NCBI GenBank assembly: GCA_977020255.1
Contig: CDROCS010004962.1
Coordinates: 62,001 to 126,000 of the forward strand
Source of the DNA: Obrimoposthia wandeli
Lineage: Eukaryota
DNA: 64,000 bases
Reading direction: 5' to 3'
This document shows positions 1 through 19,383 of the stretch, one piece after another. The translations under genes were made by a program, and so were the position numbers. A model generated the notes under the pieces. That model had not been told where the DNA came from. It ran no database searches and saw nothing but the letters and a program-made list of their open reading frames with translations. The first letter of the stretch is position 1. The number at the start of each line of letters is the position of its first letter.

Positions 1-3000
1 CATTAATCAAGAATCAAGAATGTCAATTTTCAATAACGTCGATTTGGATAAAGAAATGGAGGTTCAACTATATGGTGATCTCTCTCCAGTACAGCTGCAA
101 ACGCCACCACCGGCGCAGAACATTGACTTACTTTAGTCAAGACTCGACGGTGGTGAGCGAATGAGACGAAGGAGAAGCAGCAGCAAGAGCCGAGCTGTTG
201 CTAGAAGAACCGCCATTGGCCAGCTCAACTCCTAGAGAAGAACTAATGAGCGTGAGAGGTGGGGTACAGAGATCCCAATATATCTACGACTAAGATTGAG
301 ACCCGGACCTACGTAAAGTATGGGGCCTTTGAAAAATTGATTGCGTTCACATTAATAAATGTTTGATAATAATAAAATATAATAATAATAATAATAACAA
401 ATACAATACTGATATCCCAGTTGATGTAACAGATGAAGAAACTTTTAAAAATCCTTTTGTAGATGTAATTTATAGGAGCAAAAATGAGGGGACTCAGGTC
501 AACTTAATTTTTACTCAAACAATAATAAAAAATTTCACTATGCTGCAATTCCCAATCGTCTCAAATTTAGATAATGGAGCCTTCCCGGTTAGGATAAGGT
601 GTAAGTGGTATCATAGATGTTTGCATGGATTCCGATCCGAGCTCTCTTACAGCAAACATCTGACATTATGTTCACTGAATCCTGATGACAATACGCTATA
701 CAGCAGGTCTAAGGATAAGGATTTAAAATTCAGGGATTGGGCAAAATGCAAAATGCAATTTTAGCATTGTACGACCAGTATGAGAGTATTCACCTACCGG
801 CTTCGGCAAAACTACTATTCTTAGTCCCCAATATTACACAGTATCATAAATTTTCCGGTCCAAATTGTATTTTAGATTTTATGTTAAAATAAGAAGAATT
901 AGGAACAACAATTGTCAAACCGTGTTATGATCTTAATGCTCATCAAGCAATGATCATGACAGGCATAGACTGGGTTAATTTTAATTCTTGTAGATTATGT
1001 TATTTGTGTGGAACCCAGTCTAAGTTAGTCAGAGATCACAATCATGTTATGGGGCGATACCTGGGAGCCGCGTGCAACCTCTGTAACCTTGGTCGTCGTC
1101 TCCCTAAAAAACCACGAATTCCCATCGTGTTTCATAACCTCAAAGGATATGATTTGCATCATATACTTAAATATGCGTTGGGTACATTAAACTCTTGGGA
1201 AATTTCATGTATACCTCAAACTTCAGAGAAATATTTATCTTTAACTGCATATACTGAATTCTGTAGTTTGAGATTCATAGATTCTCTGCAGTTTTTGAGC
1301 GGGTCTTTAAAAAATTAAACGGCATCTTTAAATGCATGGCCAATCACACAGTCAGTGTTCTCAGCTTCGGTTAACGATATGGGTATTTTTCCGTATAAAT
1401 TTGCAAAAACCTTTGCAGATTTAGAAAATACTACAGAAATCCCACCCATAACTGAATTTGAGGGTGTAAGTCTTCAAGACTATAATGAGGCCCGTACATT
1501 TTGGGCGAATAATTGTCGAAATCTTCTAGAATATATGCTTTATTATATGAAGTTAGACATTTATCTTTTAGCTGATGTGTTTGAGTCCTTTCCTGTAAAA
1601 TCTTTAGCAGAAGATGGGCTAGATCCCATGCATTTCTTTAGTTTACCTGGTCTTTCATGGGCAACAGCATTAAACTCTTAAAATTAATATAGAGTTACTG
1701 CAAGATCCCGCGATGTATCAAATGTATGATTATGCGCGGTGGAATGACTTTTGTCAACAAACATCATCTTGTCAAAAATCAATCCACGGAGATTCTGTAC
1801 ATCGACATCAATAATTTGTATGGGTGGGCGCTTACTCAACCTCTACCTCATGCCAACTTTAAGTGGGTTTATGATGAGGAAGAGTTGAATAAGTTGATGA
1901 CAGATTTGGCTACTGTTGATACAGTTTCATCAGACATCGGCTATTTGGTTGAGGTTGACTTAACAATCCCTTCCAATGTGCATGATAAATTAGATGATCT
2001 CCCAGTAGCACCTGTTCATCAATGCCCACCTAATTCAAAGGTTAAGCAATTATTGTTAACCCATGAAGACAAGTTGAATTATGTTGTGCATTGGCGGATT
2101 CTTCAATTCTACTTAAAGTTTGGAGCGAAAGTTATCCGAATTCATCGTGCTATAAGCTTCAGTCAAAACTTTGTGTTTAAAGACTATATTGAGAAGAATT
2201 CTAGAAAACGTAATTTGGCCACTAGCAAATTTTATCGGGATTTTTACAAGTTAAAAAGTAATAGTCTCTTTGGAAAAACTGTAGAGGACTTGCGGAAACG
2301 TATTTATCTACGGTTTTGCAATGATGAGCGTAAACTAATAACATATACTAGCAAGTACAACTTCAAGCGTAGTTTTACAATTGCAGATGATTTGGTAGCA
2401 GTGTTATTAGGAAAACAGAGTATTTGTCTCGATCGACCGAGTTATATAGGTCAAACGGTTTTAGACATTTCTAAACTCAGAATGTACGAGCTTCAATACA
2501 TAGAATTAGAGAAATATCGAAGAGAATTTAATTGTGAGATTAAAATCGCAGCTGGGGACACTGACTCTTTCTTTTTAGAATGTAGGAATGTTAGTTTAGA
2601 TAATCAATTATTACCGGCAATGTTTAGGGACAACTTATTAGATACCCAAAAATATCCCGCTAACCATTCTCTACATTCTATGAGTTTAAAGGATATTATC
2701 GGGAAATTTAAGGATGAAAGCGAGGGACAGGTTTCGTATGACGATTGTATTTTCCTACGCCCTAAATGCTACAGTTTACATGCATCTAATAATACATGTT
2801 CAATGAGAGCAAAGGGTGTGGGAAGAAACAATCTTGTTGGGAATATTTTATAGCTGTTTATTTTGGAAAAATAAAAAAATATATATATATAAAAAATTTA
2901 AAAAAAAATAAAAATAAGAATTAATTAATTAAAGAATTAATTAAGAACTTTCCTTAATTAGGGAAAATTTCTATTTAGAAAATATGCATTTTGGCATTTT

Positions 3001-3582: not shown

Positions 3583-3685
3583 AAAACAAAAATCCAATCA
3601 CAGTTCAGTATCTGAAGAATTTACATTATTACTATAAATAGATAAATTAGAGGAGTTTCGTTTTGGTTGGCAGAAAATATATCGA

Positions 3686-4005
3686 CTGATTTACTTTTCA
3701 GACTATTTGGAAACAGTTTCAATTGATTTACTCAGACTATTTGGAAACAGCTTCAATTGATTTACTTTTCAGACTATTTGGAAACAGTTTCAATTGATTT
3801 ACTCAGACTATTTGGAAACAGCTTCAATTGATTTACTTTTCAGAAATATTCAGACTATTTGGAAACAGTTTCAATTGATTTACTCAGACTATTTGGCAAC
3901 AGCTTCAATTGATTTACTTTTCAGACTATTTGGAAACAGTTTCAATTGATTTACTCAGACTATTTGGAAACAGCTTCAATTGATTTACTCAGACTATTTG
4001 GAAAA
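3686..4005. repeat. Tandem array of mostly alternating 37- and 34-bp units inside the LTR
   Basis: AATTGATTTACTTTTCAGACTATTTGGAAACAGTTTC alternates with AATTGATTTACTCAGACTATTTGGAAACAGCTTC, about 9 units. Confidence 0.95.
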
Positions 4006-4499
4006 CAAATTAGAGAGAATTTTTGAATATATTATTATTGGAGACAATTTTCATTTTTCCCACCTAACAATCTTACACATGAGGCATACCGGAAAGTTTA
4101 TGATACTGGGTGTATTGAAAGCGTTGGGCAAACTAGATTTATTTCAAGAGCCCATCAACTGTATTCCCATAAATCAACCAAAATCGCTTTTGGGTAGAAA
4201 AGAACGCTAGCCTGGCTTATGGACACTTCAGAATTTAAACAATTTTCATTTTTTGATTTTTTAGTTTAGTTTTTAAAATTTTAGATCCCTATGGCACCTT
4301 GACTCTAACTTTTTGTTATTTCAATATATTTTTTAGGTTGGGCCTTATCTTTGCTGACAGATCTCATTGTCATGTTGTTTTTAATAAATGTATTAAAAAA
4401 TATTCGTCTTATGTCTTTTATTATTTTACCCTTATATTTTTTAGGGATTTAAAAAAATAATTCAAAATAAAACATTAAAAATATTTATTTTTATAACAC

Positions 4500-5476: not shown

Positions 5477-6784
5477 ATGCATATGTTGGCTACAAAAGGC
5501 TATGCGCCTTTTGCCTCCATTAAAGCCTCCAGGCAAAGGAAGAGAGTCAATGTTAATCAAGATGAGAAGCAACACATCGATGCATGCGTTCAAGCTCTTT
5601 TTCAGGCAGGTATCATTGAGAAATATACTAAAGGCCCCTTTTGCTCTCAAGTAAGAATGGTGCCCAAAGCCAACTCAGAATTACGGCGTCTTATAGTAGA
5701 TTTTAAACATCTAACGCCACATTTGCCTCAGCTGCATATGAAAATTCCGAATTTAGCCAACAGGCTCAAAAGTATCCCAGCTAATAGACTAGCAATTAGA
5801 ATTGACCTCAAGGGAGCTTTTTATCAAGTCAAGATACGTCAAGCTGCAAGACATCTGACAAATTTTTGGAATACCGAATGTTACTACCGTTTTACACGGT
5901 TGCCCATGGGTCTTCGCCAAAGCCCAGCAATCTTGCAATGGGCCATAACCAGAATCCTCGGACAATTGAAGACAAAGTGGCAAGTGGATTTAGCCCAAGT
6001 TCATATTGATGACATCTTGATCATCGCAATGCCCAATGCCAAAGTTTGGAATGAGATAAAGACTTTCTTCGAAGGATGGGGCCTCCAAATTAATTGGAAG
6101 AAGTCACAACTACAGCCAGTATCCAAGATCGAGTATTGCGGCATGTTTATTGACATACAACGCCAGGAGGTGAGTGTCAGTGACACCAAGTGGAACACCG
6201 CCAATGACATCATCGAAAAAGGTCAGTACTCAGATGACGCAATAGGTTTTTTAAATTACATAAGTTGTGTTTTACATTGGCCATATGTGGCAAACTATGT
6301 TAATCCGAGCCTCAGGAAACTATGCTACTACACATTAAAGAAGTATGCCTCTACTTGGAGTTGGAGAAACAAAAGCGGGCTCATCTGGGCCACGGATGTG
6401 ACCAAGACAACTATCGCAGTTACAAAGGCCAAACCGCTGGAAATCGCGCTCACAGCGAAACTAAAAGAAGAAAACATCTATCTTCAAGAGGCCAGAGCGG
6501 TGCTGATGGCTATGTGGAAGGCGAGTCGAGGAGATACAATTCTCTGCGACAATCTAGCCTTGGTTTGGAGCATCAGGAATAGGCGAATACCAGCGCAAGT
6601 GGAGCATTGGTGGACGCTTATCGCGGTGCAACTGCTCGCCGTTATCAAACAAATCACAGTACAATTCATCCGTACTCAGTATAATCCAGCTGACGCTCCA
6701 ACCAGATCTGCAGAGACCCAAGCCAAGAAGGAAGAAGATTGGGGAGTGTTACTATCTCTAACCATGCATCAAGCAATAACATGA
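5477..6784 (+). CDS. Reverse transcriptase-RNase H (DIRS/hepadnavirus-like), intact 435-aa ORF
   Basis: RT: VPK....RRLIVDF..L, IDLKGAFYQV, FTRLPMGLRQSP, VHIDDILI, GLQIN.KKS.L.P...IEYCG..ID. RNase H: WATDVT, LQEARAV, LCDNLA, YNPADAPTR. No gag, protease, integrase or tyrosine recombinase nearby. Confidence 0.92.
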   Translation: MHMLATKGYAPFASIKASRQRKRVNVNQDEKQHIDACVQALFQAGIIEKYTKGPFCSQVRMVPKANSELRRLIVDFKHLTPHLPQLHMKIPNLANRLKSIPANRLAIRIDLKGAFYQVKIRQAARHLTNFWNTECYYRFTRLPMGLRQSPAILQWAITRILGQLKTKWQVDLAQVHIDDILIIAMPNAKVWNEIKTFFEGWGLQINWKKSQLQPVSKIEYCGMFIDIQRQEVSVSDTKWNTANDIIEKGQYSDDAIGFLNYISCVLHWPYVANYVNPSLRKLCYYTLKKYASTWSWRNKSGLIWATDVTKTTIAVTKAKPLEIALTAKLKEENIYLQEARAVLMAMWKASRGDTILCDNLALVWSIRNRRIPAQVEHWWTLIAVQLLAVIKQITVQFIRTQYNPADAPTRSAETQAKKEEDWGVLLSLTMHQAIT

Positions 6785-6874: not shown

Positions 6875-7008
6875 TACCACCTTTGGGTTCCAGGCGTGAT
6901 GTGATTGGGTGGCATTTATTATATAAGCTGGCACAAAAATACAATCAGTGCCAGTCTTATATAATAAATGCCACCCAATCACATCACGCCTGGAACCCGA
7001 AGGTGGTA
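6875..7008. repeat. Near-perfect inverted repeat (60-bp stem, 13-nt loop)
   Basis: Arm 6875-6934 is the reverse complement of 6948-7008 apart from one bulged T and one T/G pair; loop AAAAATACAATCA. Confidence 0.97.
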
Positions 7009-7208
7009 TCTAGAAGAGTTTTTCTATATTTCTTTAATATATTTTTCCGTTTTCCAATTTTTACTCGACCCAAAACTATATTATACAAAACTTCCAATAA
7101 ATCGTCTACAACAAAAGATGGAAATGCTTTAAGAATAATCATTCTCTTATGAGAAGAGGCTTTGACTAAAGCTTTAAAATAGGGTATGCTTCTTTGTATT
7201 TTCTTCAT
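6984..7208 (-). pseudogene. Small conserved Polinton-type protein, C-terminus disrupted at the hairpin
   Basis: IL..FP.FVVDDL.EVLYN...G.V.IG.RK..LKKY.K.LL pattern, as I recall from small basic Polinton/adintovirus ORFs; natural C-terminus not reached. Confidence 0.55.
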
Positions 7209-7234
7209 TTTAATAAAAAGGTTTAATTTGAATA

Positions 7235-7243
7235 TTGTTTATA
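7235..7243 (-). promoter_or_regulatory. TATAAACAA motif
   Basis: 26 nt upstream of the ATG at 7208; overlaps the TAA of the upstream small ORF. Confidence 0.65.
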
Positions 7244-7376
7244 TTCGAAGCCATTTAAGTTTTTTTTATTTCTAACTACAGATTTGATTAATATTTTCAC
7301 CTCTTTTTTCTTTATGATTTTTTTTTGATTTCTTAGGCTTTGCTTTAAGTTTTACTATCAACTTCGTAAAAGGCAT
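7239..7376 (-). pseudogene. Short lysine-rich ORF downstream of the ATPase
   Basis: MPFTKLIVKLKAKPKKSKK..., probable frameshift in an A-run, ending W-L-R-I-TAA. Confidence 0.4.
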
Positions 7377-7383
7377 TGTAAAT

Positions 7384-8030
7384 TTATCTTTTATAATTGT
7401 TCTCTATTTGTTTATAAACAGTTACTCCCTTAGAATTAAATATGTCGGTTAAAACACGTAAATCATCTGGGCAAGCTTGTGTAAAGTCAATAAATATATA
7501 CCCATGTGCTTGTTTAGCAGCATCATGGAATGAATCAACTAGAAAGTTCTTATTTTGAGGAAATGCCTGTCTGGCCACGAAATCTACAACTGTTTGATGT
7601 CTAGGATTTTTAAATAAAACTAAGTAATGTACATTAAGATTTCTAGTTCTATGGTGACCTCCTTGGTGAAATAGATTTTGAGTGATAAATATAACTGTTA
7701 TTTCACGATGTCTTGCAATCTTTGTAAATAAATTATTAAAGTCCGATTCCTTGTTAGCCTCCTCATACAAATCATCAATTATTATTACATCTTCTTTTTT
7801 CAATCTTTCACACCAATTTGCATCAAATCCTTCAATAAATTGTATTCCCTTCAACTTGCAAACTTCTGTTTTGGTTAATCCGCTTTCCGCTCCTCCACCA
7901 TGATGCAATAAATATTTTTGAAACTAGATTTGAAAATAGATTCATTTTTCAACAATTTACATACGAAATGTGTCTTTCCACTTCCACTGGGACCAACTAT
8001 TTGAAATACAGCATTATTATTTAGCTCCAT
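7384..8030 (-). pseudogene. A32/FtsK-like packaging ATPase (one frameshift near 7910)
   Basis: Walker A VGPSGSGKT (upstream of the tracked ORF, other frame), Walker B IIIDDL, LFTKIARH..ITVIFITQN, RNLNVHYLVLFKNPR. Confidence 0.93.
7408..7416 (-). promoter_or_regulatory. TATAAACAA motif
   Basis: Inside the ATPase 3' end, 31 nt upstream of the ATG at 7376. Confidence 0.55.
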
Positions 8031-8055
8031 TGCATATACTCTTTCATTTTTAATA

Positions 8056-8064
8056 TTGTTTATA
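8056..8064 (-). promoter_or_regulatory. TATAAACAA motif
   Basis: 25 nt upstream of the ATPase ATG at 8030. Confidence 0.65.
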
Positions 8065-8067
8065 TTA

Positions 8068-8340
8068 TCATAGAAGTTTCCTTATTGAAATGTACAATGT
8101 TAGTGCTATTGTAGATGAAATACAAAAATTAATTGATGAATATTTGGCTATAATTTTATTTATTTGTGTACGATTTCTAAATTCTCGAATAACGTGTGAT
8201 CTAACCAATATTTCAATGTTATCTCTTGTTATATCATTATTTTTTAATTCTGATAAAATTTCTTTACCCCTAATTTTCCCAGAAAATATTTCGTCGGAAA
8301 GACGATCCACTTCATTGTCTGTATTTATAGTATTATTCAT
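8068..8340 (-). CDS. Unknown small protein with hydrophobic C-terminal tail
   Basis: Open frame from the ATG at 8340, ending FCISSTIALTLYISIRKLL; preceded by the TATAAACAA motif. Confidence 0.5.
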   Translation of the reverse strand: MNNTINTDNEVDRLSDEIFSGKIRGKEILSELKNNDITRDNIEILVRSHVIREFRNRTQINKIIAKYSSINFCISSTIALTLYISIRKLL

Positions 8341-8364
8341 TTGAAACAATAAGTTTAAACGGGT

Positions 8365-8373
8365 TTGTTTATA
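8365..8373 (-). promoter_or_regulatory. TATAAACAA motif
   Basis: Overlaps the stop codon of TBP-like A; 24 nt upstream of the ATG at 8340. Confidence 0.65.
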
Positions 8374-8871
8374 GAAAAGATAACAAGATGTAATAAGATA
8401 TATTTTCTAAAATCAAATCAACAATGTCTGGATAATCAAAATTTTTCAATCCCAATATCATAACTTTACTACTGGAAAATATATTTACACATAGCGGTTT
8501 AAACTTCAAATAACTGAGATCAGGAAAAATTTCTGGTTCAAACATGCATTCTTCTTTCATTTTCTCTGCAGTTTTAAAAAGATTTATCTGTTTCCCGAGA
8601 TTGGCCGAAATTGTGATAGATTCTATTTCAGTGATTCGAATTCCAAATGGTAAATTGAACCCAAGCATTGGTATTTTGCATCCCATAACACGACAATTTC
8701 CTAAAAGAATTCAATATGAAAATAAAATTAAAAAAACTAACCTTTAGGAAAAATAACCACTGTGAAATTGTCAAATATTTCCACATATTGTGTCGGCTTC
8801 CATTCCTTGAATGGTAAGTACGAAACATCATCTTCTGTTCTACCTTTATAATTTATATTTACGAGTTTCAT
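8369..8871 (-). CDS. TATA-binding-protein-like factor, copy A (153 aa after splicing)
   Basis: Exon 1 8871-8742 (MKLVNINYKG...VVIFPKG), 41-nt GT-AG intron 8741-8701, exon 2 8700-8369 (NCRVMGCK...MFEPEIFPDL...CVNIFSSSKVMILG). The total of 462 nt is an intact frame. Matches TBP repeats LIF.SGK...TG and YEPELFPGL...LIFVSGKVVLTG. Confidence 0.85.
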
Positions 8872-9120
8872 TAGGCTAAAATTGTATTCTGTAAAATGTT
8901 CTTTATATATGTCTGAACCTGCTTTTTTATTGCACGTTTCTTGTAATTATCTTGCAAACCTATTATAATTGGATGATATATTTCTTCCAATCAAATTTGA
9001 TTTTTAATATGGATTTAATCCAATCAAATTCAATGCTTTAGTTATATTAACCAATGAGATTCATGTCTTTGTTAGAAATTAGTATAAAAGAATGCGCCAT
9101 TGGAGGACAAATCACAGTAA
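8872..9120. promoter_or_regulatory. Bidirectional host-type promoter (CCAAT cluster plus two TATA boxes)
   Basis: TATATAAAG on minus (8901-8909), TATAAAAG on plus (9083-9090), four CCAAT boxes 8968-9055; CCAATGAGA and CCAATCA recur in element B at 14765-14785. Confidence 0.6.
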
Positions 9121-9603
9121 ATGCATTCATATCAAAGACAATTATCAACGATGGAGGATAGCCAACGGATATTAAGCGGTGACGAATATTCGGAAATGTT
9201 TGAAGAATCGGATAAGGATATGTATGAAGAAATGAAACAATATTTCAAATACAAATTCAGATTCTTGAAGAAGGCTCAACTGATTGCTTTAGTAAATCCT
9301 GTGACAATTGAAAGAAGAAAGTTCAGCTACTATCTATCAAATATTCAAAAACCAGATTTTCAATATCTTAAACAGAAAGTTGAAAAGGCAGTTCCGAATT
9401 TTACTTTCAATAAGAACAAATTTTATATCCGAGGACCCGATGAAGCATTTCTAGATAACTATGGAAAATATGTTGATATTGATGCATTTCCGAAAAAGAA
9501 GCAATGGACTGTAACAATTCGGCTTTATGGTTACAAGAAAGATGAAATGGGAACAAAGTTGCATATGTGGAAAGTTGAACGTGCTCATAATTCTATGTTT
9601 TAA
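9121..9603 (+). CDS. Conserved hypothetical protein U1, copy A
   Basis: Intact 160-aa ORF; shares YF.Y...FLK, F.Y..S.I...D and FPK.K.W...I...G.K.D..G.....W....H with 14840-15349. Confidence 0.8.
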   Translation: MHSYQRQLSTMEDSQRILSGDEYSEMFEESDKDMYEEMKQYFKYKFRFLKKAQLIALVNPVTIERRKFSYYLSNIQKPDFQYLKQKVEKAVPNFTFNKNKFYIRGPDEAFLDNYGKYVDIDAFPKKKQWTVTIRLYGYKKDEMGTKLHMWKVERAHNSMF

Positions 9604-9701
9604 ATATTTGCGTGTAATAAATTGTAATCGGTTTTACTATGTTTCTTTCATTTAATAATCAGTTTTATTTTTTAAATATTTGTATCTTATATGTATCTTA
9701 A

Positions 9702-10127
9702 ATGTATTTTTTTATAAACATTGTTTTTAATCAATTTCCACATTTTAGAATGGATAAGAGATGTGTAGCAAATTATTATTATCCAGAAAGAATTTCAAAA
9801 GGAAAACTATGTAATATATTAAAGAGGCATCAAATTATACGAGTTATGAATCCTGTGAAAATATCAAAAGTGGAGAATAACTAACTCATCAAAATTTTAA
9901 CAACATCTGATTTTTATCAATTCAAAAATATTTTGGGATTTTACATTCCTGATTATGTATATGAAGGAAATTGTTTCGAGCTTGAAACTGATCCCAGTCT
10001 GGATTTTAAAGATGATCTAGGATATTTGATTGCTCCAATTCTAGATGAAGAACTATGGAATATCTCAATACGTCTCAATAGATATTTTGCTGATGATGGG
10101 AAAATGCAGCCTCTGGACTTTGAGTGA
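9702..10127 (+). pseudogene. Hypothetical protein U2 (two in-frame ORF pieces separated by a stop)
   Basis: 9702-9884 and 9933-10127 are in the same frame and read through one TAA; no recognisable domain. Confidence 0.45.
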
Positions 10128-10379
10128 AGCCAATATGTCGTTTAATGTTTAATAAATGTTTTGAAAAATAATTTTGACTAGTATTTTGTTTTTTCTCCTC
10201 TAAATTATATAGATCTATTTTTATACTATAAAACTGACCTAAATATTTAACATGTAGTAATCTTTCTTAAAAAAAGTAGTAACATATTTTTAATATGCGA
10301 TAAGCCGCTGGGGTCAATATGGATTCCCGTGGTCTTCTCTAACCACTTTCGAGATAAATTTCAAAGTAAATTAAAAAAT

Positions 10380-10652
10380 ATAGGGGGAACCCCCCGCCCC
10401 TCCCTCCTATTTGATGCTTTTTCCCCTACACATACACAAAATTTCACTCCACACACATGCACGAATTTTCACTCCACACACATGCACGGTTTTAAGGGAC
10501 AGTGGTACCCCCGGGGGTAGAAAATTTCACTTCACACACATACACGAATTTTCACTCCACACACATGCACGAATTTTCACTCCACACACATGCACGGTTT
10601 TAAAGGACAGGGGGAGTGGGGGTGTGGATTAGACCGGACACATCCACCTACT
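10380..10652. repeat. Right terminal region of element A: 24-bp CGAATTTTCACTCCACACACATGCA repeats, CCCC-GGGG palindrome, short terminal hairpin
   Basis: About 5 copies of the 24-mer, GGTACCCCCGGGGG at about 10504-10517, GTGGAT/ATCCAC hairpin just inside the CTACT end. Confidence 0.8.
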
Positions 10653-10800
10653 CATATCCACCAGGTTTTAGCGTCGGTATTTTATCCATAGGAAACACTC
10701 CTTTGAATTTATGTTTTAATAATTCCATTCCCGCAGTATTAAGCTGTTTAGAACTACATTAATTATTATTATTATTAAGATCAATAAACACTTACTTCAT
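10653..10800 (-). pseudogene. 5' part of the element B protease, truncated by element A
   Basis: ATGAA, 42-nt intron 10795-10754, then (MN)SKQLNTAGMELLKHKFKGVFPMDKIPTLKPGGY, ending at the AGTAG terminus of A. Confidence 0.8.
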
Positions 10801-12055
10801 CCAACAATTGCACGTTTGTCTTTAGTTACTTGAATTTCAGTATCGAAAACACCGTTAATTATAATATTTGATGGATGTTCCAATCCTTCGAGAAACATTA
10901 CGTCAAGTCTTAGATTACCTTGTCTCGGTAATTGATGTTGATTTATATCAAAGTCGGGAGCCAATAAGAATGTAAAAAATGGGTAATGTTCCTTAAAATC
11001 TTCAGATGTTATACCTATGTTTATATTCTTATCCAATAATCCCATGTTTCTAACCAGTGATTGAATACACGCAAACATGTATTCATCTTTTTCAAAGTTT
11101 GTAGTGTACGTTTCAACAAAATCAGTGTTTCTACTAAGGGAAATTTAAAAAAAAAACATTACAATGATCAAATTCTGAAGTGTCTGTTTCACTAGACCCG
11201 TCCATTTTAAGATTATGTTGAAATGTAACCAAAACAAATTTAGGTAATTGCTCATCATCAAAAATAGGTGATTTATAAAATGTTGTAGAGCCTTTAGGTA
11301 GTGAATAATGTACCACCTTTCCCCGTCTATATGGATAAACCGCATTTTGAGTTTCCAAACCAACATTATGAGCCATCAAAACTGATGGTTCAACTCGTAC
11401 ACGTCTAACTTTCATTTTAGCATTCAAAAATTTTATTCTACAATGAGTTGTACCTGTTTTTAGTGATATGTTTGCTTTTGGAAATAATCAATTTTATACC
11501 GACATTCTTACCGGGGAGCAAATATTTGGGTTGTTCAAGGAAATCCGATCAAATTGAACCGCACAACTCAAATTCACTCGATTTTTCAATCCACCCTTTT
11601 CGTTCATTCTGATTACTATCATAACCAATTCCATCTAAAGAAACACTTTTCGTATCTTTGCTATAATTAAGCATACATTCAATCAAAGCCTTGTGAGCAT
11701 AATTACCATTTCCTCCTTCAATACGAGTATTATTCAGGTGAATTTGCACATCTTTAAATAGTGTATGGAAAAAGAAATTTGTTGGTATAAATTTATCTGC
11801 TTCCACCATGTCAATATAACTGTTTGTTCCATTATTTTTTAAAACTTTAATTTTCAAATATAATAGAGAATCGTTCAAATCTAAATATTCTGTTTCACTC
11901 GAATGGATATTAAACTCGATTGTATTAATATTACTACCGTTAATATTATTAACCGGGTAAATATTCTCAAAACATTTATTTTCTATAGCAATTTGAGGTA
12001 GTGGACAATCAAATAAACACAGTTCAGATTTTTGCACATGCCACTTCTTACTCAA
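10797..12055 (-). pseudogene. Major capsid protein (PY), element B, frameshifted
   Basis: KSELCLF..P.PQ..IE, IEF.I......YLDL....LY.K.KV, NY.HKA.IE..LNY, VRRVRVEPSV..AH..GL....A.YP, LAPDFD, G.LRLD..F, GVFDTEIQV. Confidence 0.93.
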
Positions 12056-12431
12056 ATATGGTTACTATATTACTACGTTTGTTTATACTACCACTACCTT
12101 TCTGTACTTCTTCTTTCATTTTAACAGGAATTTGTGCTGGTCGTTTTTGACTTTTCTTTATTGCAGTCATTAGTTGAGTAGCAGCTTTTGTTGCTTCAGG
12201 CAACAAACCTGGTACTTCACTCATTGCATTTGATTTTAGTTCACTCAAATTTGGTTTATCGTTCATTACTACATTTGTAAGTGTTTTTGCTCCAATTCGT
12301 CCTAAATGTGATAGTGTAGGAAACGCAATTCTCCCCAAAACTTTCAACTAACCTGAACCATATTGTTTTCCAACAAAGTAAGGTAGTTCACCACCCGTTT
12401 GGGTTGTACTATACACATCAAATAGACACAT
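12048..12431 (-). pseudogene. Putative core/virion protein precursor with Gly-Gly protease sites (one premature TAG)
   Basis: MCLFDVYSTTQTGGELPYFVGKQYGSG*LKVLGRIAFP...; the Q.GG.LP.F.G.QYG.G pattern is typical of Polinton core-like ORFs. Confidence 0.7.
12079..12087 (-). promoter_or_regulatory. TATAAACAA motif
   Basis: Inside core-gene codons (S-I-N-K), 23 nt upstream of the MCP-B start at 12055. Confidence 0.65.
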
Positions 12432-12456
12432 TATTAACGATTAACATTGTATAATT

Positions 12457-12465
12457 TTGTTTATA
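12457..12465 (-). promoter_or_regulatory. TATAAACAA motif
   Basis: 25 nt upstream of the core-gene ATG at 12431. Confidence 0.65.
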
Positions 12466-13413
12466 CATAACCTTTCAGAAATTTAGTGTTAAACTAGTTT
12501 TTGCGTTATGAGCAAAGTTTATCGGTATTCCACTATCATTACGAATATTTACTTCAATATTGGAAATAGATGTTGATATTACAGGAAGATACATATGGTC
12601 TAATGATTGTAATATTTGCGATATCACCATTTTTTTGTTTTTATCTAATCAAATTGTTTTTAACAATGGTATTTTTACACCACCAACATTTATAGACTCT
12701 ATCAAATTGGTATACAGGTACTTGTGATCAAACTCACATATTAATTGTGGAATGCCTTTACCGTCACCTGTAAATTCTGTTTTATTAAGACCCAGTACAA
12801 ATGCCATAAGATTATTAAACAGTATGCTTGAAATATTAGATTTTAACTTGAACTTAATGAATTTATCTTTTTCAATGTAAAACATACTAAAAATATGATT
12901 ACATTTAGATATAACGTATTTAACTAATGCATTCAAATCTGTACTATTGAAAACGTTGTCAAACACGATTTTTGAATTGATATCTTTCTTTCCTAATTGA
13001 TAATATTCGAATTTTGTTGATACATATTTATGATGTATGGTTTTTTGAGCAGTTAAAATACAATTATCATCAGATGCTAAGTAATTTTCATGGTTTAATT
13101 CATTATTTAGGAAACCCAATTGATTTTTCAATTTTTTCGATAGTTTTATATAGAATTTCTGTTTATTTAAAGATTTTAAAACAAGTACATTTTCCTTTTT
13201 ATCTTTGCCATATGTACCAAACTCACAATAAAGATTAGCAATGCGTTTTGATGATTTTATTTCTACTTTTGAAATTTTCTTTATATTAAATTTAACAGGT
13301 TTATGCTTATCATTATGAATTTCCCCATCTTTAAATTCAACATTTAATGAGACAGTATCGGTTTTCTTAGCACTTACCGTTTCCTTATAATTTATTTCAC
13401 TACCCTTGTCCAC
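12461..13413 (-). pseudogene. Minor capsid protein (penton, PX), N-terminus apparently deleted
   Basis: C-terminal signature YLYTNLIESINVGGVKIPLLKT, then PY......I..IEVNIR...G.PI.F......TL.F after a stop. Confidence 0.8.
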
Positions 13414-14197
13414 ATAGTAGAAATACTACTTCAATATGATTATTCAAACATACTACACATTCAGGTTCATTTAACATGTATGAAAGTATATTTAAGTATT
13501 GTTTTTCAGGGTCTTTTTCTAAATTATATAAATCACAAATCATTTCAAATAATGAATTGTATTCTCCATATTGCATCATTTTATATTTTAAAACAGATTT
13601 TATTCTCTCTCTCGTGAAAAACCTTTTCAAGTATCTGATGTTGTTGGTATCCATCAACATGTCGAATTTTTCCGTAGTTAAAGGATATTCACTTATACAA
13701 TCTGATTCGTTTTTCTCAATAACATTAGCATCATTATAGGGTCCTAAACCTTTTGAATAACATATATCAGGTAATTTTACAACAATATCTGATATATATA
13801 CTTTTCCAATCAATGGTGATGTATCAAAATCAATTTTCTTGACCATAGTTTCAATTATTGGTACATTTGAAACATTTAACTTTAAAATAAATGGACATGT
13901 AAGAAAAAATTTCATATGTTGCTTCATTGGTTTAAGATACCATTCCCATTCGGATATTGCACCTTGACAGTATATACATTTTACTTTATCAGTTGAATCA
14001 TCATCATGTTTATAAAATCCAGCTTTAGCTAAATTATATACAGATTGTTTCCCTTTAAAATTTATAATTAACAATCTTAATCTTTCACTTTCACGTCTAT
14101 ATTTCCCGTGTAAAACTTTCATTCTAGAATAATCTACTTTTCGTCTAACTAAAACATCATCAACAGTTTTATAATGAAGTATATAATCAACAAGCAT
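13400..14197 (-). CDS. Inhibitor-of-apoptosis-like protein: one BIR domain plus truncated RING
   Basis: E.ERL...LAKAGFY...VKCIYC...EWE...PM.QH......CPF (CCHC zinc ligands intact); C-terminal ECVVC...VVFLLCGQ stops mid-RING. Likely start is the ATG at 14197. Confidence 0.88.
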   Translation of the reverse strand: MLVDYILHYKTVDDVLVRRKVDYSRMKVLHGKYRRESERLRLLIINFKGKQSVYNLAKAGFYKHDDDSTDKVKCIYCQGAISEWEWYLKPMKQHMKFFLTCPFILKLNVSNVPIIETMVKKIDFDTSPLIGKVYISDIVVKLPDICYSKGLGPYNDANVIEKNESDCISEYPLTTEKFDMLMDTNNIRYLKRFFTRERIKSVLKYKMMQYGEYNSLFEMICDLYNLEKDPEKQYLNILSYMLNEPECVVCLNNHIEVVFLLCGQG

Positions 14198-14222
14198 TTT
14201 TAAAAAATCAAAAAACATATAT

Positions 14223-14231
14223 TTGTTTATA
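14223..14231 (-). promoter_or_regulatory. TATAAACAA motif
   Basis: Overlaps the TBP-like B stop; 25 nt upstream of the ATG at 14197. Confidence 0.65.
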
Positions 14232-14545
14232 AGAAACTATCAAGAAAAAATACAATAGACTCGACTTGACAATGATAATCAAAATCTTTAATACCAAGAA
14301 TAATCACTTTTCCACTAGCAAACACATTAACACAGAGGATTATATTTTAAAATTCTGAGTGCTGGAAACAATTCTGGTTCAAACATACAATTTCTTCCCA
14401 TTTTCATAGATATCTTATACAAATTAACCTTCTTGTTGATATTCACTAGGATACTTAGAGATTGAATACGTTCAATTTCTATATTTTGAGCATCTTTGAT
14501 TGGTTGTTTGCAATCCATAATTCTACATGAACCTAAATAGTAGTA

Positions 14546-14587
<42 letters not shown>

Positions 14588-14715
14588 GTTGGAAATATAA
14601 CTATAGTATAATCCTTTAACTTTTCAACATATTGTATAGGTTTCTTTGATCGAAAAGGTAAGTGACTAACACTTCCCTTAAATTTACCTTTATAATTTAT
14701 ATTGATTATTTTCAT
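14227..14715 (-). pseudogene. TBP-like factor, copy B (spliced; 2-nt deletion near 14330)
   Basis: MKIININYKG...VIFPT, 53-nt intron 14585-14533 at the same phase-1 position as copy A, SCRIMDCK...CMFEPELFPAL...PLC, then (V)NVFASGKVIILG in a shifted frame. Confidence 0.85.
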
Positions 14716-14839
14716 TATGTGATAATAATTGATGATGTCACAAACATATATAGTTTCATATTATCCAATGAGAATCAACCAATCATATTCAAGTAGTCAA
14801 CTATAACTACCGAAACATTTCAGTTTACTCTCATTCATT

Positions 14840-15349
14840 ATGTTCAATTTACAAAAATCGATTTTGAAGAGCACAAAAAAGAGGAATAATGAAATTTTAA
14901 ATACAAGCAAAGTTGTACAGATAGATTCTGATGATACAGAATTAGAGGATATTTTTAATAGAGAAACAGAAGACCTATTCAAAGAATATGTACCTTATTT
15001 CAGCTATACAATGAATTTTCTCAAGATGCCTGTTACCTTTAGATTAAAATACCCTGTTATGCTAACAAAGTCCAAGTTTGACTATTTCATCTCAAGGATC
15101 CATCAAAATGATATTAACAATATCAATGTTATTTTCAGAAGAATGAAATTAGATAACAAAATTGAAAACTTTAGTGCTTTTATTAAAGCTGATGAACATC
15201 TGTTTAAAGGAATATATACTTACTCTGAAGAAGAATTTCCCAAAAGCAAATATTGGATTTTATTTATTCAAATTCAAGGATTCAAAGTCGATAGACTCGG
15301 GAGACAGAAGCCTATTTGGAGAATTACTGAAGGACATAAGAAAGTTTAA
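14840..15349 (+). CDS. Conserved hypothetical protein U1, copy B
   Basis: Intact 169-aa ORF homologous by eye to 9121-9603, in the same head-to-head position with the TBP-like gene. Confidence 0.8.
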   Translation: MFNLQKSILKSTKKRNNEILNTSKVVQIDSDDTELEDIFNRETEDLFKEYVPYFSYTMNFLKMPVTFRLKYPVMLTKSKFDYFISRIHQNDINNINVIFRRMKLDNKIENFSAFIKADEHLFKGIYTYSEEEFPKSKYWILFIQIQGFKVDRLGRQKPIWRITEGHKKV

Positions 15350-15594
15350 TGTAATCATATGAATAAATTATTTATTGATTTTATTTATCATATGAATAAA
15401 TTATTTTATTAATCTTTAACTAGAAACAAAAGTAATATAAATATAATCTTTGCCAAAGGTGTTGCCCGGTCTTCGGATGAAGGGCTTCCCTCTTAGGAGG
15501 CTCCGTAAGGGAGATTTTGGCCACTTAAAATCTACTTTTGTTTTAAACGGCGAGATATTTAGCGCCATATTTGAAAATAGGTCTTAAAATCACG

Positions 15595-16075
15595 CATACA
15601 ACGCCAAAAAAGGTTTTGCAGTAAAACGTACCCCACCTATTGCCTTGAGTTAGTATGCGCGATTTTCAGACCAAATGTAGGCCAAGTCTCGAAATCCTAC
15701 ATACGAACTCAAATTGATTTTGCAGTAAAAAGGTACCCCCCCTCCGGGGGGACCTATTACCATTGAGTTAGTATGCACGATTTCAAGGCTTTTTGGTCAA
15801 GTCCGGAAATCACACATACGAACTCAAATAGATTTTGCAGTAAAAGGTACCCCCCGGGAGGACCTATTACCGTTGGTTTAGTATGCGTGATTTTCAGACC
15901 AAATTTAGGTCAAGTCTCGAAATCCTGCATACAACGCCAATATGGTTTTGCAGTAAAAAGTACCCGGCCCCGGGGGGGACCTATTACCATTGGTTTAGTA
16001 TGCGTGATTTCGAGACATTTTGATCAAGTCCAGAAATCACACATACGAACTCAAATAGATTTTGCAGTAAAAACG
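15595..16075. repeat. Subterminal array of about 104-115-bp units with central C-run/G-run palindromes
   Basis: TTTTGCAGTAAAA recurs at 15614, 15718, 15833, 15946 and 16060; two alternating subtypes; GTACCCC..GGGGGACC cores. Confidence 0.9.
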
Positions 16076-16199
16076 TAGAAATTTGAGTCATTTTGAGTCA
16101 TTTTAAGCCAATTTAAACAAATTTTAGACATTTTAATGACATTCTGTCTAAAAAATAACAGTATACAGAATCAATAAATGATTTTTCATTATCATTCAA

Positions 16200-16745: not shown

Positions 16746-17624
16746 TATAATTTTAGGGGGTTTCTAAGGGGCAGCTCATGTATTGTTCATAGCCATACCA
16801 ATCTTATTCACATAAACCACTACTATTCACATAATCCATTAATAACTGTCAAAATGTCTGGATCTTATGTAGCCCAGATATATACAATATATGTGCATTT
16901 ATATCACTAAGAATATTGGCAATTGACCGAAAACCTTCACACAACACAAATAAAACACTGTAAATATACATCGGTCTCTCATCGACTCATTCATATTCGA
17001 ACCACTGTGATTAAGCATTTGCTGAATCACAATTTACCTTTATATTTACAAACTGTTCATTCAAATTTTACAGTGGTTGTATTGTAGATAGATGACATTT
17101 GACATATAATGACGATATGTTACCTTTTTCAAATTTAATTAAAAAACTTATCCCAAAAGCATATAAACAATAATACAGTGTATACTTGAAATCCGTACAT
17201 TGGGTTAAAAATCTGACAGTTTGATAGATCATCTTGAAATTTGAGACACATGTTAAAAATTATAGATATTAAAAAATACTTTTATTTTAACCAATCATTT
17301 TATACAACTTATCGATTTAAAGCGTAAAATGGAGAATTTAAATGATCAACAACGAAGAGATGTAATTATACAATACCACCTATCTTAAACTGATGAATCA
17401 TTAAATAAAGTTGCCATCTACGTCAAAGAGCTCGGGATTACAATACAAACTGTCTATGATGTGCTTAACAGCTTCAAAAAACGAAATTTATCTAAGAGGG
17501 CACAAGGATCGGGCAAAGTAGGTGAGAAGATGAATGAAAGAAAATTCAAGAAAATGTTGAAAGAGATACAGCCAAGCTGTTCGTCAATGCGTGAAGTAGC
17601 ATCAACGTATGAAATTCATCATAC

Positions 17625-19383
17625 TGTTAGATTTAGGAATTGAAAAATTAAAAGAATTAGTTAAATTTATACTAAAATGAAAATCCTTGAAAGCAAGGTT
17701 GAAAATTAAATATTAAAATCGAGTTAAAATATTAGGACTAGAATTAGGGGTAAATATTAAGAGGACCACGAAGGTCGTGTGTAGTGTGTTGTATATATAG
17801 GTTAATTAGAAAATATTAAAGTGCAAAATAAGCAAAAAAGCAAAAAGAGACAAATAAGAAAATCGAAGAAAAAGAAAAGTTAATTGCTGAATCGACGTCA
17901 GCAGAAGAAGAAAAGAGTAAGCGCATTTTTGGGTGCAGAGTTAATTAACTCCGTCACAGGTAGAAAACCCGGAAACCAGCTGTCGATCAAGTGATCGACA
18001 ATCACAAGTCCCAGTCGCGGGAAAGCCAGAGCTCAGCAAGCAGCTGCAAATCAAGTGCTCCACAACCAACTATATAAGTCGACTAAAAACCCGCACAGAG
18101 AATCAACAGAGAAAGCCAGGACACACAGAGGTGAGTGCTTTGTTTAAGTGCTCAGAATTCAGAAAATAAAAGTATAAAAGGAAATTATCCTTTTGCGAAT
18201 TGCCAGAAAACGAAATAAACTAGAATAAAGAGAAAGCGAAATTGAACTCGTTGATTTAAGCCAAGCAGAAGGATCGAACAATACTACCAAAGGAAACTCC
18301 GGACAAACGATCAGGAGCGCTTGATTAAGCCGAGCAGAAGGATCAACCAATACTAGCGAGAGAATTTCTGGTCAAACGATCAGGAGCGCGGAAGGAGTTA
18401 ACTAGGAGACGAAACGCGGTTAGTCAGCAAGTCTTGTTTCCGTGGAGACCTTGCAGCACCAGTTCCCAGCAATTCTAAGCTCGGAGTTCGTCGGACATCG
18501 CAGAGACGCAGACTCGAATCGGCGGCATTCCTAATCATTGGTGAGATAGGAGATATAGCGGCGTCTGTTTATATATATTCGTATTTTGAAGTAGAAAGTT
18601 GAATAAATAACTGATTCGTATTTTGAAGTAGAAAGTTGAATAAATAACTGATTCGTATTTTGAAGTAAAAAGTTGAATAAATAACTGATTCGTATTTTGA
18701 AGTAGAAAGTTGAATAAATAACTGATTCGTATTTTGAAGTAAAAAGTTGAATAAATAACTGATTCGTATTTTGAAGTAGAAAGTTGATAAATAACTGATT
18801 TGTATAATCGTATTTTGAAGTAGAAGTTGATAAATAATTGATTTATATAATCGTATTTTGAAGTAGAAAGTTGATAAATAACTGATTTATATAATCGTAT
18901 TTTGAAGTAGAAAGTTGATAAATAACTGAATTGTATAATCGTATTTTGAAGTATAAAATTTTGAAGAATTAGAGTTGATTCAAATCTATAAAGTCAAAGT
19001 TACCCTCATTTTTAAGAGTCCAGACTTTAGGGATCAACTAACCTTAACCTTAAAATCGATACGTGGTTCATCCCCACTTGTGTAGAGACTTACAGAAGTC
19101 TTAGGAATTCTTACCATACTTTTTAGAAGATACGTACATAAACGTATTGTTGTGTTATAGTTTAGTGTGTTACCAATAAACGATTTCCTACATTAGAAAA
19201 CGTTGTTTTAAACCTTTCAGATTAAGAGACGTCAAACAAACACCTTCAGATAAGAAATAGAGATAGGCAACCATAACCCTAAGTAGGCCACGACCAACTT
19301 TAAGACCTGCTTCTATTCGAACTCACGTTGGGGCCCTCCGCACAAAAGAGGATCTATACAAGTTTCATATAGAAACCCCAACA
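17625..19383 (+). mobile_element. Solo LTR (Gypsy-type), 1759 bp
   Basis: TGTTAG...CCAACA ends with 4-bp TSD ATAC (17621-17624 / 19384-19387); removal restores the transposase frame; TATATAA at 18071; internal ~68-bp duplication 18257-18390. Confidence 0.88.
18577..18955. repeat. 37-44-bp tandem array inside the solo LTR
   Basis: About 10 copies of CTGATTCGTATTTTGAAGTAGAAAGTTGAATAAATAA and longer variants. Confidence 0.95.

Follow-up and report, generated by a model that had tools for sequence, protein, structure and literature searches.

A TATA-like motif before virion genes and a compact TBP-like protein suggest a candidate late-transcription switch in Polintons

We describe a candidate late-transcription system of Polintons in a 64-kb stretch of DNA (hereafter, the window, that is, the whole stretch analyzed) from the eukaryotic, AT-rich, 1.35-Gb assembly of Obrimoposthia wandeli; nested, decayed Polintons occupy the first 16 kb of the window. 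A first-pass annotation had proposed that these elements encode a protein resembling the TATA-binding protein (TBP) that switches on their virion and packaging genes through a TATA-like motif, TATAAACAA. The observation is general well beyond the window, and, judged from sequence, the proposed cascade is likely. The motif is kept before capsid and packaging genes over a clade with ATPases about 35% identical, which suggests that the virion genes are co-regulated as a programme. The arrangement of promoters and genes points to a built-in early-to-late gene switch in these Polintons, in which the viral TBP would read the motif.

The motif in the window

The window contains parts of two elements. 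Element B has, on the minus strand, the TBP-like gene followed by IAP, a penton remnant, core protein, major capsid protein (MCP) and protease; its protease is interrupted at about 10650 by element A, which has U2 and U1 on the plus strand and, on the minus strand, the TBP-like gene, a tail-anchored open reading frame (ORF), the packaging ATPase, a basic ORF and a small conserved ORF. Between 7208 and 14715 there are seven copies of TATAAACAA, all on the minus strand and exactly where the first-pass annotation placed them (7235, 7408, 8056, 8365, 12079, 12457 and 14223), compared with a mean of 0.48 and a maximum of 3 in 200 local shuffles; from 16500 to 64000 the frequency is near chance, as had also been stated, with four copies compared with 2.9 expected. 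The motif occurs in both elements, and two of the copies lie within codons of the upstream gene, one at the end of the ATPase and one at the end of the core gene. The copies at 8365 and 14223 represent one homologous site (the TBP stop), so the window contains six independent sites.

In element A, the copy at 8365..8373 (minus) overlaps the stop codon of the TBP-like gene and lies 24 nt 5' of the 90-aa tail-anchored ORF (8340-8068); of 29 sister copies that could be aligned, 28 have it intact. The copy at 8056..8064 (minus; intact in 25/29 sister copies) lies 25 nt 5' of the A32-like packaging ATPase (8030 to about 7384, minus, frameshifted) and has out-of-frame ATGs at gaps 8 and 20. The copy at 7408..7416 (minus; intact in 20/23) is embedded in the codons for the C-terminus of the ATPase (YKQ), 31 nt 5' of the short basic ORF (7376); here the codons are TAT AAA in 9/9 cases compared with 6.0 expected, a weak test. 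The copy at 7235..7243 (minus; intact in 20/22), which overlaps the stop of the basic ORF in sister copies, lies 26 nt 5' of the small conserved ORF (7208-6984, minus); this ORF is cut by an insertion in the window, encodes 109 aa in sister copies, and has a weak adenovirus pX-like match at its C-terminus (PF05829, E 0.013, below cut-off).

In element B, the copy at 14223..14231 (minus) also overlaps the TBP stop and lies 25 nt 5' of the start of IAP (14197-13400, minus; BIR and partial RING). The copy at 12457..12465 (minus) is located 3' of the penton stop and 25 nt 5' of the core-protein start (12431), and that at 12079..12087 (minus; intact in 11/12 sister copies) lies within the core-protein codons, 5' of the decayed MCP gene (about 12044-10797, minus). 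The spacing of 23-31 nt that had been given for all seven genes holds for six of them (motif end to ATG, 24-31 nt) and fails for MCP: the window copy lacks an ATG at the expected start, and the gap is 33-34 nt in 10/12 stretches of family B, where a pattern located the MCP start, and 33 nt in family A. The identity of the motif in sister copies is 0.984 compared with 0.947 for its flanks; this comparison is biased because the window copy was picked for exact motifs, so we do not count it as evidence.

The genome contains at least four Polinton families (A–D), and both the TBP-like gene and the motif are present in all four. In the copies of family D, IAP starts at the same Met as in family B, likewise behind the motif.

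The motif across metagenomic relatives

We recovered 77 metagenomic TBP-like loci, most of them adjoining Polinton genes; after removal of four large-virus-like loci without Polinton genes (L114-116, L120) and 13 near-duplicates, 60 loci (230 kb, 340 ORFs) were compared, with ORFs that have too little upstream sequence omitted from each count. Motif discovery in these relatives, the first check that had been suggested for sequences upstream of MCP, penton and ATPase, identifies ATAAACA as the most frequent 7-mer at 22-50 nt upstream of ORF starts (67/306, compared with 6 in a control window further upstream); 7-mers with permuted letters give a median of 4 in-window hits compared with 68 for ATAAACA, and the reverse orientation gives 0/206, that is, the motif is used on the sense strand only. 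The consensus is wider than first noted, (T>C)ATAAAC(A>G), with position 9 loose. CATAAAC, which deviates at positions 1 and 7, is in use (12/53 before ORFs, as well as the integrase and penton sites of family A), and the dinucleotide that follows TATAAA hexamers in promoter windows is CA in 56/100 cases, the next commonest accounting for 10.

Within 110 nt upstream, the motif is found for 61/82 virion, packaging, integrase and PLA2 genes compared with 4/60 TBP, single-stranded DNA-binding protein (SSB) and polymerase genes, the classes being defined by function and not by measured timing; the chance rate, from gene-interior windows, is 2% (26/1294). By gene, the counts are 17/22 for ATPase, 11/12 for MCP, 7/11 for penton, 6/7 for core, 8/13 for integrase, 6/9 for the small ORF and 6/7 for PLA2, and 2/48 for TBP, 1/6 for polymerase, 1/6 for U1 and 2/6 for protease. 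Two further features of the original description require revision. The position is not fixed: the quartiles for the distance from the first base of the motif to the ATG are 36, 39 and 44.5 nt, and extra sites lie 57-107 nt upstream of the MCP, core, penton and integrase genes. Nor is the motif restricted to the virion block: U2, on the plus strand of element A, has TATAAACAT (9713..9721, plus) 37 nt before its ATG at 9750.

With respect to the upstream gene, 32 sites are intergenic, 18 are on the stop codon, and 15 and 13 are internal, with three frames used. The site for the core gene has, by comparison of the sequences, turned over between families: in family A and its relatives it is about 100 nt upstream, within the penton codons, whereas in family B the penton-internal site is missing in all nine located stretches and a site 34 nt upstream (12457 in the window) takes its place. 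Behind CATAAACA, and overlapping the integrase gene at its 5' end in a different frame, there is a conserved ORF of 64-83 aa that begins with Met-Gly, a possible myristoylation signal (L040:4377-4595, L060:4536-4736, L068:5592-5786, L075:3410-3661, L149:5735-5965).

A copy of ATAAACA is also found at the matching spot within the C-terminal codons of MCP in both elements (minus, 11024 and 5105), about 220-260 nt 5' of the protease gene; this copy may be a distant protease promoter or may be codon-driven.

A second, host-type promoter class

The TBP-like gene and U1 had been described as using host-type TATA and CCAAT promoters, and this is what we find. In element A, the two genes diverge from a bidirectional promoter (8871..9121) with a canonical TATA box 38 nt upstream of either ATG (TATATAAA, minus, 8909; TATAAAAG, plus, 9083) and CCAAT/ATTGG at 8968, 8987, 9020, 9051 and 9099; in element B, the TBP-U1 promoter (14715..14840) has TATATATG (minus, 14752) and CCAAT at 14765 and 14779. 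Among the relatives, canonical TATA boxes precede 16/51 TBP genes and all seven members of one neighbouring family. An initiator (Inr)-like TCA[TGC] is present at +28..33 for 20/42 canonical-TATA sites compared with 9/79 motif sites (background 7.5%), and CCAAT accompanies 17/32 canonical-TATA sites compared with 11/78 motif sites. The combination of canonical TATA, Inr and CCAAT is found more often at TBP and SSB genes.

The motif as a promoter

A promoter reading of the motif is well supported by these comparisons, because the motif is strand-specific and tracks the ATG, its position has shifted between families, it divides the genes into two classes, and it is followed by a limit on out-of-frame ATGs. 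With regard to the last, out-of-frame ATGs behind the motif occur 24 times per 1017 positions at +9..28 and once per 433 positions past +31, so the boundary is near +28 to +31, which bears only indirectly on the start position; a similar limit is found behind canonical TATA boxes. At most of the genes that have it, the motif is the sole TATA-like element.

The tight packing of the genes, and the use of the TAA of the motif as the upstream stop codon in 18/78 sites, would also suit a signal that acts on RNA, that is, a poly(A) signal of the TATAAA type or a stop-coupled signal for translation or trans-splicing. However, 16/63 sites begin 37 nt or more upstream of the last base of the upstream stop, which would put cleavage no further than the stop itself; in eight sites the upstream neighbour is on the opposite strand; and the spread of distances to the downstream ATG (quartiles 36-44.5) is far tighter than that to the upstream stop (-34 to -0.5). 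Furthermore, canonical AATAAA is located 3' of cluster-terminal genes in 4/4 window places checked, no AG acceptor signal is found ahead of the ATG, and upstream ATGs are allowed right behind the motif. The poly(A) reading, against which the first-pass annotation had argued, is thus opposed by spacing, opposite-strand neighbours and the AATAAA signals, and we consider any RNA-level role very improbable.

The motif could instead be the site of a host forkhead protein or of another host factor that confers tissue-specific expression: ATAAACA fits the forkhead consensus (RYAAAYA) exactly, and ATAAATA is mildly enriched (14/151). However, the strong forkhead site, GTAAACA, is found 22-50 nt before an ORF in 1/57 cases, TGTTTAC in 0/57 and reversed ATAAACA in 0/206, and ATAAACG, which lies outside the consensus, is enriched (12/43); a host-factor site is, in our judgement, improbable to nearly the same degree.

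A third possibility is that the elements borrow a late promoter from a helper large DNA virus, by analogy with virophages; shared helper promoters have been described for PgVV, Sputnik and mavirus (10.1101/2022.07.28.501842). In the elements studied here, however, the introns and the TATA/Inr/CCAAT promoters indicate nuclear host transcription, the motif is constant over a deep clade drawn from many metagenomes, and the element has its own TBP-like gene, all of which make a helper promoter hardly credible.

The TBP-like protein

The TBP-like gene of element A (8369..8871, minus) consists of two exons (8871-8742 and 8700-8369) separated by a 41-nt, phase 1, GT..AG intron (8741-8701); the apparent break in the ORF is this intron and, when it is allowed for, the protein has the 153 aa that had been proposed. 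The gene of element B (14227..14715, minus) has a 53-nt intron (14585-14533) at the same position but is decayed, with exon 2 frameshifted. Family D shares the intron position with elements A and B, and a GT..AG gap of 34-51 nt is matched 28 times across 50 own-genome stretches (some of these are the same copy seen twice); the intron is absent from family C and from most metagenomic relatives. In four sets of contigs of unknown kind from one sample, aligned to 7900-9250, the intron is not among the 15 joints listed of 310, a result that bears on neither splicing nor start sites. The presence of a spliceosomal intron implies nuclear transcription.

Exon 2 of element A matches the Pfam family PF00352 with 35.8 bits (cut-off 22.9), and eight relatives of the compact family match with 37.6-63.4 bits; the family is wide, with 56 clusters (50% identity) at E < 1e-10. 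The structure predicted for an intronless own-genome paralogue (L042; 62 members; pLDDT 96.4) is a full TBP saddle that superimposes on TBP with Z 13.5 and rmsd 2.5 (147 residues); alignments to TBPs cover 144-149 residues at Z 13, the next family is at Z 6.9, and the identity to TBPs in the PDB is 18-24%. The protein is therefore a member of PF00352 with the two-repeat saddle fold, although it does not have the four Phe and the symmetric Asn/Thr/Val/Leu contact set of a canonical TBP.

The 62 family members were compared with the host TBP exons of L152 (G000:C238:871400-874100), where two canonical copies are located head to head, about 0.6 kb apart. Three of the four intercalating Phe are kept (59, 62 and 62 of 62; both C-terminal Phe in 62/62), whereas the first position has no conserved aromatic; the first Asn of the DNA-contact set is also kept. 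Six DNA-facing positions differ from the host TBP: in the N-terminal repeat, Val->Asn (54 members), Val->Arg (60) and Thr->Met (62) and, in the C-terminal repeat, Asn->Ser (58), Val->Cys (54) and Leu->Asn (62); in yeast numbering, these presumably correspond to V71N, V122R, T124M, N159S, V203C and L205N. The viral protein is about 25 residues shorter than cellular TBP in its N-terminal repeat, which in the model lacks the long H1 and H2 helices. The C-terminal stirrup, the TFIIB-binding part of TBP, has a near-invariant YEPE(L/I)FP (YEPELFP; E 56, P 57, E 61, F 62 and P 57 of 62). The earlier view of a conserved C-terminal and a diverged N-terminal repeat is thus correct for the stirrup and Phe, and not for the three C-terminal DNA-facing positions that have changed. 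In TBP, the 3' end of the box is contacted by the N-terminal repeat; the modelled anatomy of the viral TBP fits a 3'-shifted reader of the box.

Which protein reads the motif?

We think it probable that the viral TBP reads TATAAACA and activates the late genes together with host TFIIB and RNA polymerase II (Pol II). In the mechanism that we propose, host TFIID and Pol II would transcribe the TBP-like and SSB genes from promoters with TATA, Inr and CCAAT, as the anatomy of these promoters suggests, and the TBP-like mRNA would then be spliced in the nucleus. The compact viral TBP would bind (T/C)ATAAACA via the rebuilt 3' half of its saddle, its YEPE(L/I)FP stirrup would recruit host TFIIB, and Pol II would start about 30 nt downstream without an Inr; the ATPase, capsid, core, integrase and accessory genes would thereby be turned on, presumably late. 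The N-terminal helices of TBP contact TAF, TFIIA, Mot1 and Brf1, so the loss of two of them would free the viral TBP from these factors. A stronger version, to which we give somewhat less than even chances, is that in a deep clade of animal Polintons a single TBP of 150 aa, its specificity re-cut, takes the place of TFIID on (T/C)ATAAACA and recruits host TFIIB and Pol II without TAFs or any other viral factor; it would then be the smallest known eukaryotic sigma-like switch, with an autonomous virion programme and an origin independent of herpesviruses.

Co-occurrence of the motif with the TBP-like gene, the second check that had been suggested, is seen in all four own-genome families, among them one that was reached by a search with a distant ATPase meant to supply a within-genome control. 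In nine Polinton loci picked by their ATPase alone, the motif precedes 2/21 structural/packaging genes (six loci) and 2/69 ORFs (all nine loci). The association is confined to a single clade: on the ATPase tree, the compact TBP gene and the motif occupy one branch, with one change (SH-aLRT 93 by a quick method). One of the control loci, L130 (JASGCW010000101.1, a Polinton misbinned in a bacterial metagenome-assembled genome), encodes a different, full two-repeat TBP with an intact N-terminal repeat (11565-12122, minus) and has TATAAAAGG 33-43 nt upstream of three genes, one of them the homologue of the small ORF; this is the pattern that would be expected if box and protein co-vary, and Polintons may have gained a TBP on more than one occasion. 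The full-repeat TBP has two matches in the Obrimoposthia wandeli genome, both of them the host TBP genes; a search with the L130 capsid protein gave only 28-29% matches; and scans of IMG/VR with TBP, MCP and ATPase alignments gave no relatives. The Polintons examined here encode no RNA polymerase, and a viral TFIIB was sought without success: the genome has 12 low-copy matches, and there is none in the 51 neighbouring ORFs.

Host TBP might itself read the motif as a weak, Inr-less TATA box by means of a Hoogsteen pair, a mechanism that PMC4402545 gives for TATAAAC-type boxes; the box would become productive only when templates are amplified and nucleosome-poor, and the viral TBP would have another role, for instance to titrate host TFIIB or to boost the early promoters. 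The host has two canonical TBP genes, a crystal structure shows wild-type TBP bound to a C(-25), that is, TATAAAC, box (PDB 1QN3), and the co-occurrence of gene and motif amounts to one phylogenetic event. However, many weak TATA variants exist and yet CA follows TATAAA in more than half of the cases; the doubly deviant CATAAAC is used; the Inr is lacking; and the DNA-binding face of the viral protein is under a fixed non-canonical constraint. We therefore regard reading by host TBP as unlikely, although it is the most serious of the alternatives.

The viral TBP might also bind the motif as a repressor, which would keep the virion genes of integrated copies off, or might require a viral or host co-factor, like the viral TBP of herpesviruses; the N-terminal helices that contact TFIIA and TAFs in cellular TBP are absent from the model, and the elements have a very high copy number with most copies decayed. 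The near-invariant TFIIB stirrup, and the fact that most of the genes have no TATA-like element other than the motif, argue against this, and we assign repression or co-factor dependence a low probability.

Returning to activation by the viral TBP, several observations besides the 1QN3 structure weigh against it. The ATPase tree provides a single contrast, so shared ancestry alone explains the co-occurrence, and the control loci are mostly partial contigs from which the TBP gene may merely be missing. The short contigs of the TBP subfamilies L095, L101, L102, L107, L109, L111 and L118 have no motif (0/23 ORFs), and de novo 7-mers in seven divergent-TBP loci give nothing above 3/29 ORFs. The division into two gene classes is imperfect: the protease has the motif within 55 nt in 0/6 cases, the SSB paralogue U2 has a late-type motif, and 34/51 TBP genes have neither promoter type within 55 nt. 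The depletion of ATGs near the true start could partly be general, and the residues of the N-terminal repeat were mapped by motif anchoring because hhalign left that repeat unaligned. Finally, the herpesvirus viral TBP requires five further viral factors and none is evident here, no Pfam family of these activators of the viral preinitiation complex (vPIC) being found among the 51 neighbouring ORFs or those of the window.

U1 and U2

U1 (element A, 9121..9603, plus; element B, 14840..15349, plus) is likely an OB-fold, phage-type SSB, and U2 (element A, 9750-10150, plus) is its paralogue and likely an SSB as well. The model of the U1 family has pLDDT 91.7, and its top four fold matches are ASFV CP312R, Enc34 SSB, DUF2815 and T7 gp2.5, with middling Z (7.1-7.7; rmsd 2.6-3.7 over 101-121 residues); some members among the 19 U1/U2 loci compared have acidic tails. 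A search of the Atlas with U1 gave no hit >=0.9. An SSB fold suits an early replication role for U1, which has the host-type promoter. We had considered U1 as a partner factor of TBP and dropped this candidate when the fold pointed to an SSB.

Other features of the window and of the families

In sister copies of family A, the gene order is TBP, tail-anchored ORF, ATPase, basic ORF, small ORF, integrase, penton, core, MCP and protease, facing pPolB; the set of pPolB, retroviral-type integrase, A32 ATPase, protease and capsid genes is that of Polintons/Mavericks. In the window, DNA_pol_B_2 is above its Pfam cut-off and the Pox_A32 match is weak; MCP and penton have no Pfam match. The names integrase, protease, MCP and penton are based on gene order, mutual similarity and known motifs. 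The penton (minor capsid) remnant of element B (12475..13425, minus) is similar to the 353-aa ORF in the penton position of family A, which we take to be the penton from its gene position and N-terminal motif. Repeat-rich ends are located at 10400-10650 and 15570-16080, in copies that are truncated and nested one within another. In element A, the small ORF is followed by a reverse-transcriptase insertion (5477-6784, plus; intact, 435 aa; its C-terminal domain weakly resembles the hepadnavirus type, PF00336, at a score below cut-off) that adjoins a 53-nt inverted repeat (6875-7008), and then by the end of MCP and the protease. Tandem repeats of 71 nt and 37-44 nt, together with an HTH-containing transposase-like fragment, are found at 3626-4060, 17389-17640 and 18540-18970.

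With the TBP-like gene, MCP and ATPase as queries, the own-genome searches each gave at least 150 scored matches and ~30,000 first-look candidates. The IAP of family B (13400-14197) is 80-89% identical to that of family D (L149-L151), whereas the capsid genes of both families are about 50% identical to family A-type references; in addition, family B copies have IAP joined to the middle of the penton and lack the ATPase-integrase block. These features suggest that family B has recently exchanged genes and is non-autonomous. Many copies of family D share identical ATPase scores, which indicates a young burst. Among the cargo genes of the relatives are those for an E2 ubiquitin-conjugating enzyme, LRR proteins, RING fingers, PLA2-like proteins, a dynamin-like GTPase and KilA-N domains (L060:225-719, L062:1918-3327, L083, L093:6273-7037, L108:6804-7889).

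Significance and comparison with known systems

A single small protein and a short DNA box are enough to test the candidate switch, and the motif is useful for annotating starts and structural genes in these elements. If the switch operates as we propose, its TBP would be a natural change-of-specificity variant that acts without TAFs, the system would be a convergent, minimal equivalent of the late complex of herpesviruses, and the two parts would form an orthogonal TBP-promoter pair of possible use as a transcription tool. The first-pass annotation knew of no such cascade in Polintons; we found no description of a Polinton TBP-promoter system in the literature within view, which did not include subscription papers and bioRxiv supplements, although the logic is close to the herpesvirus TATT system, so a precedent exists. 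Two accounts of Polintons/Mavericks/adintoviruses (PMC8502044; 10.64898/2026.06.19.733378) describe elements with the gene set, and probably the terminal repeats, of those found here; the word 'promoter' is absent from their main texts and no own promoter system is described there, and in the accessible text of PMC8502044 'TBP' is named only in a figure legend on non-animal MELD viruses, unanalysed.

The closest likeness is to late transcription in beta- and gammaherpesviruses, where a viral TBP mimic (ORF24/BcRF1/UL87) acts on TATTWAA promoters (PMC12529657). Both systems have host-type promoters on early genes and a minimal TATA variant on late virion genes (early and late being presumed from gene function in Polintons), a virus-encoded TBP-fold protein as the proposed reader, and transcription by host Pol II, which in Polintons is predicted. 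The two readers differ in construction: ORF24 is large and multidomain, belongs to a six-factor complex, binds Pol II directly and has a model reported to be incompatible with TFIIB (PMC12529657), whereas the Polinton TBP is a bare saddle of 145-180 aa that keeps the TFIIB stirrup and has no Pol II-binding N-terminal domain. The boxes differ also, the Polinton box being altered at position 7 (and 1) and the herpesvirus box at position 4. BcRF1 is only a distant fold match to the Polinton TBP (9% / 16% identity class hits), which suggests convergence. With cellular TBP, the Polinton protein shares the saddle fold, three of the four Phe, the first Asn and the stirrup.

The TBP-like factors of the Nucleocytoviricota (poxvirus VITF-3 and ASFV pB263R) are likewise viral TBP folds tied to stage-specific promoters. 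Their partner is an RNA polymerase that the virus itself encodes, and they act for the most part in the cytoplasm; in contrast, the Polintons described here have neither a polymerase nor a TFIIB of their own, and they have introns.

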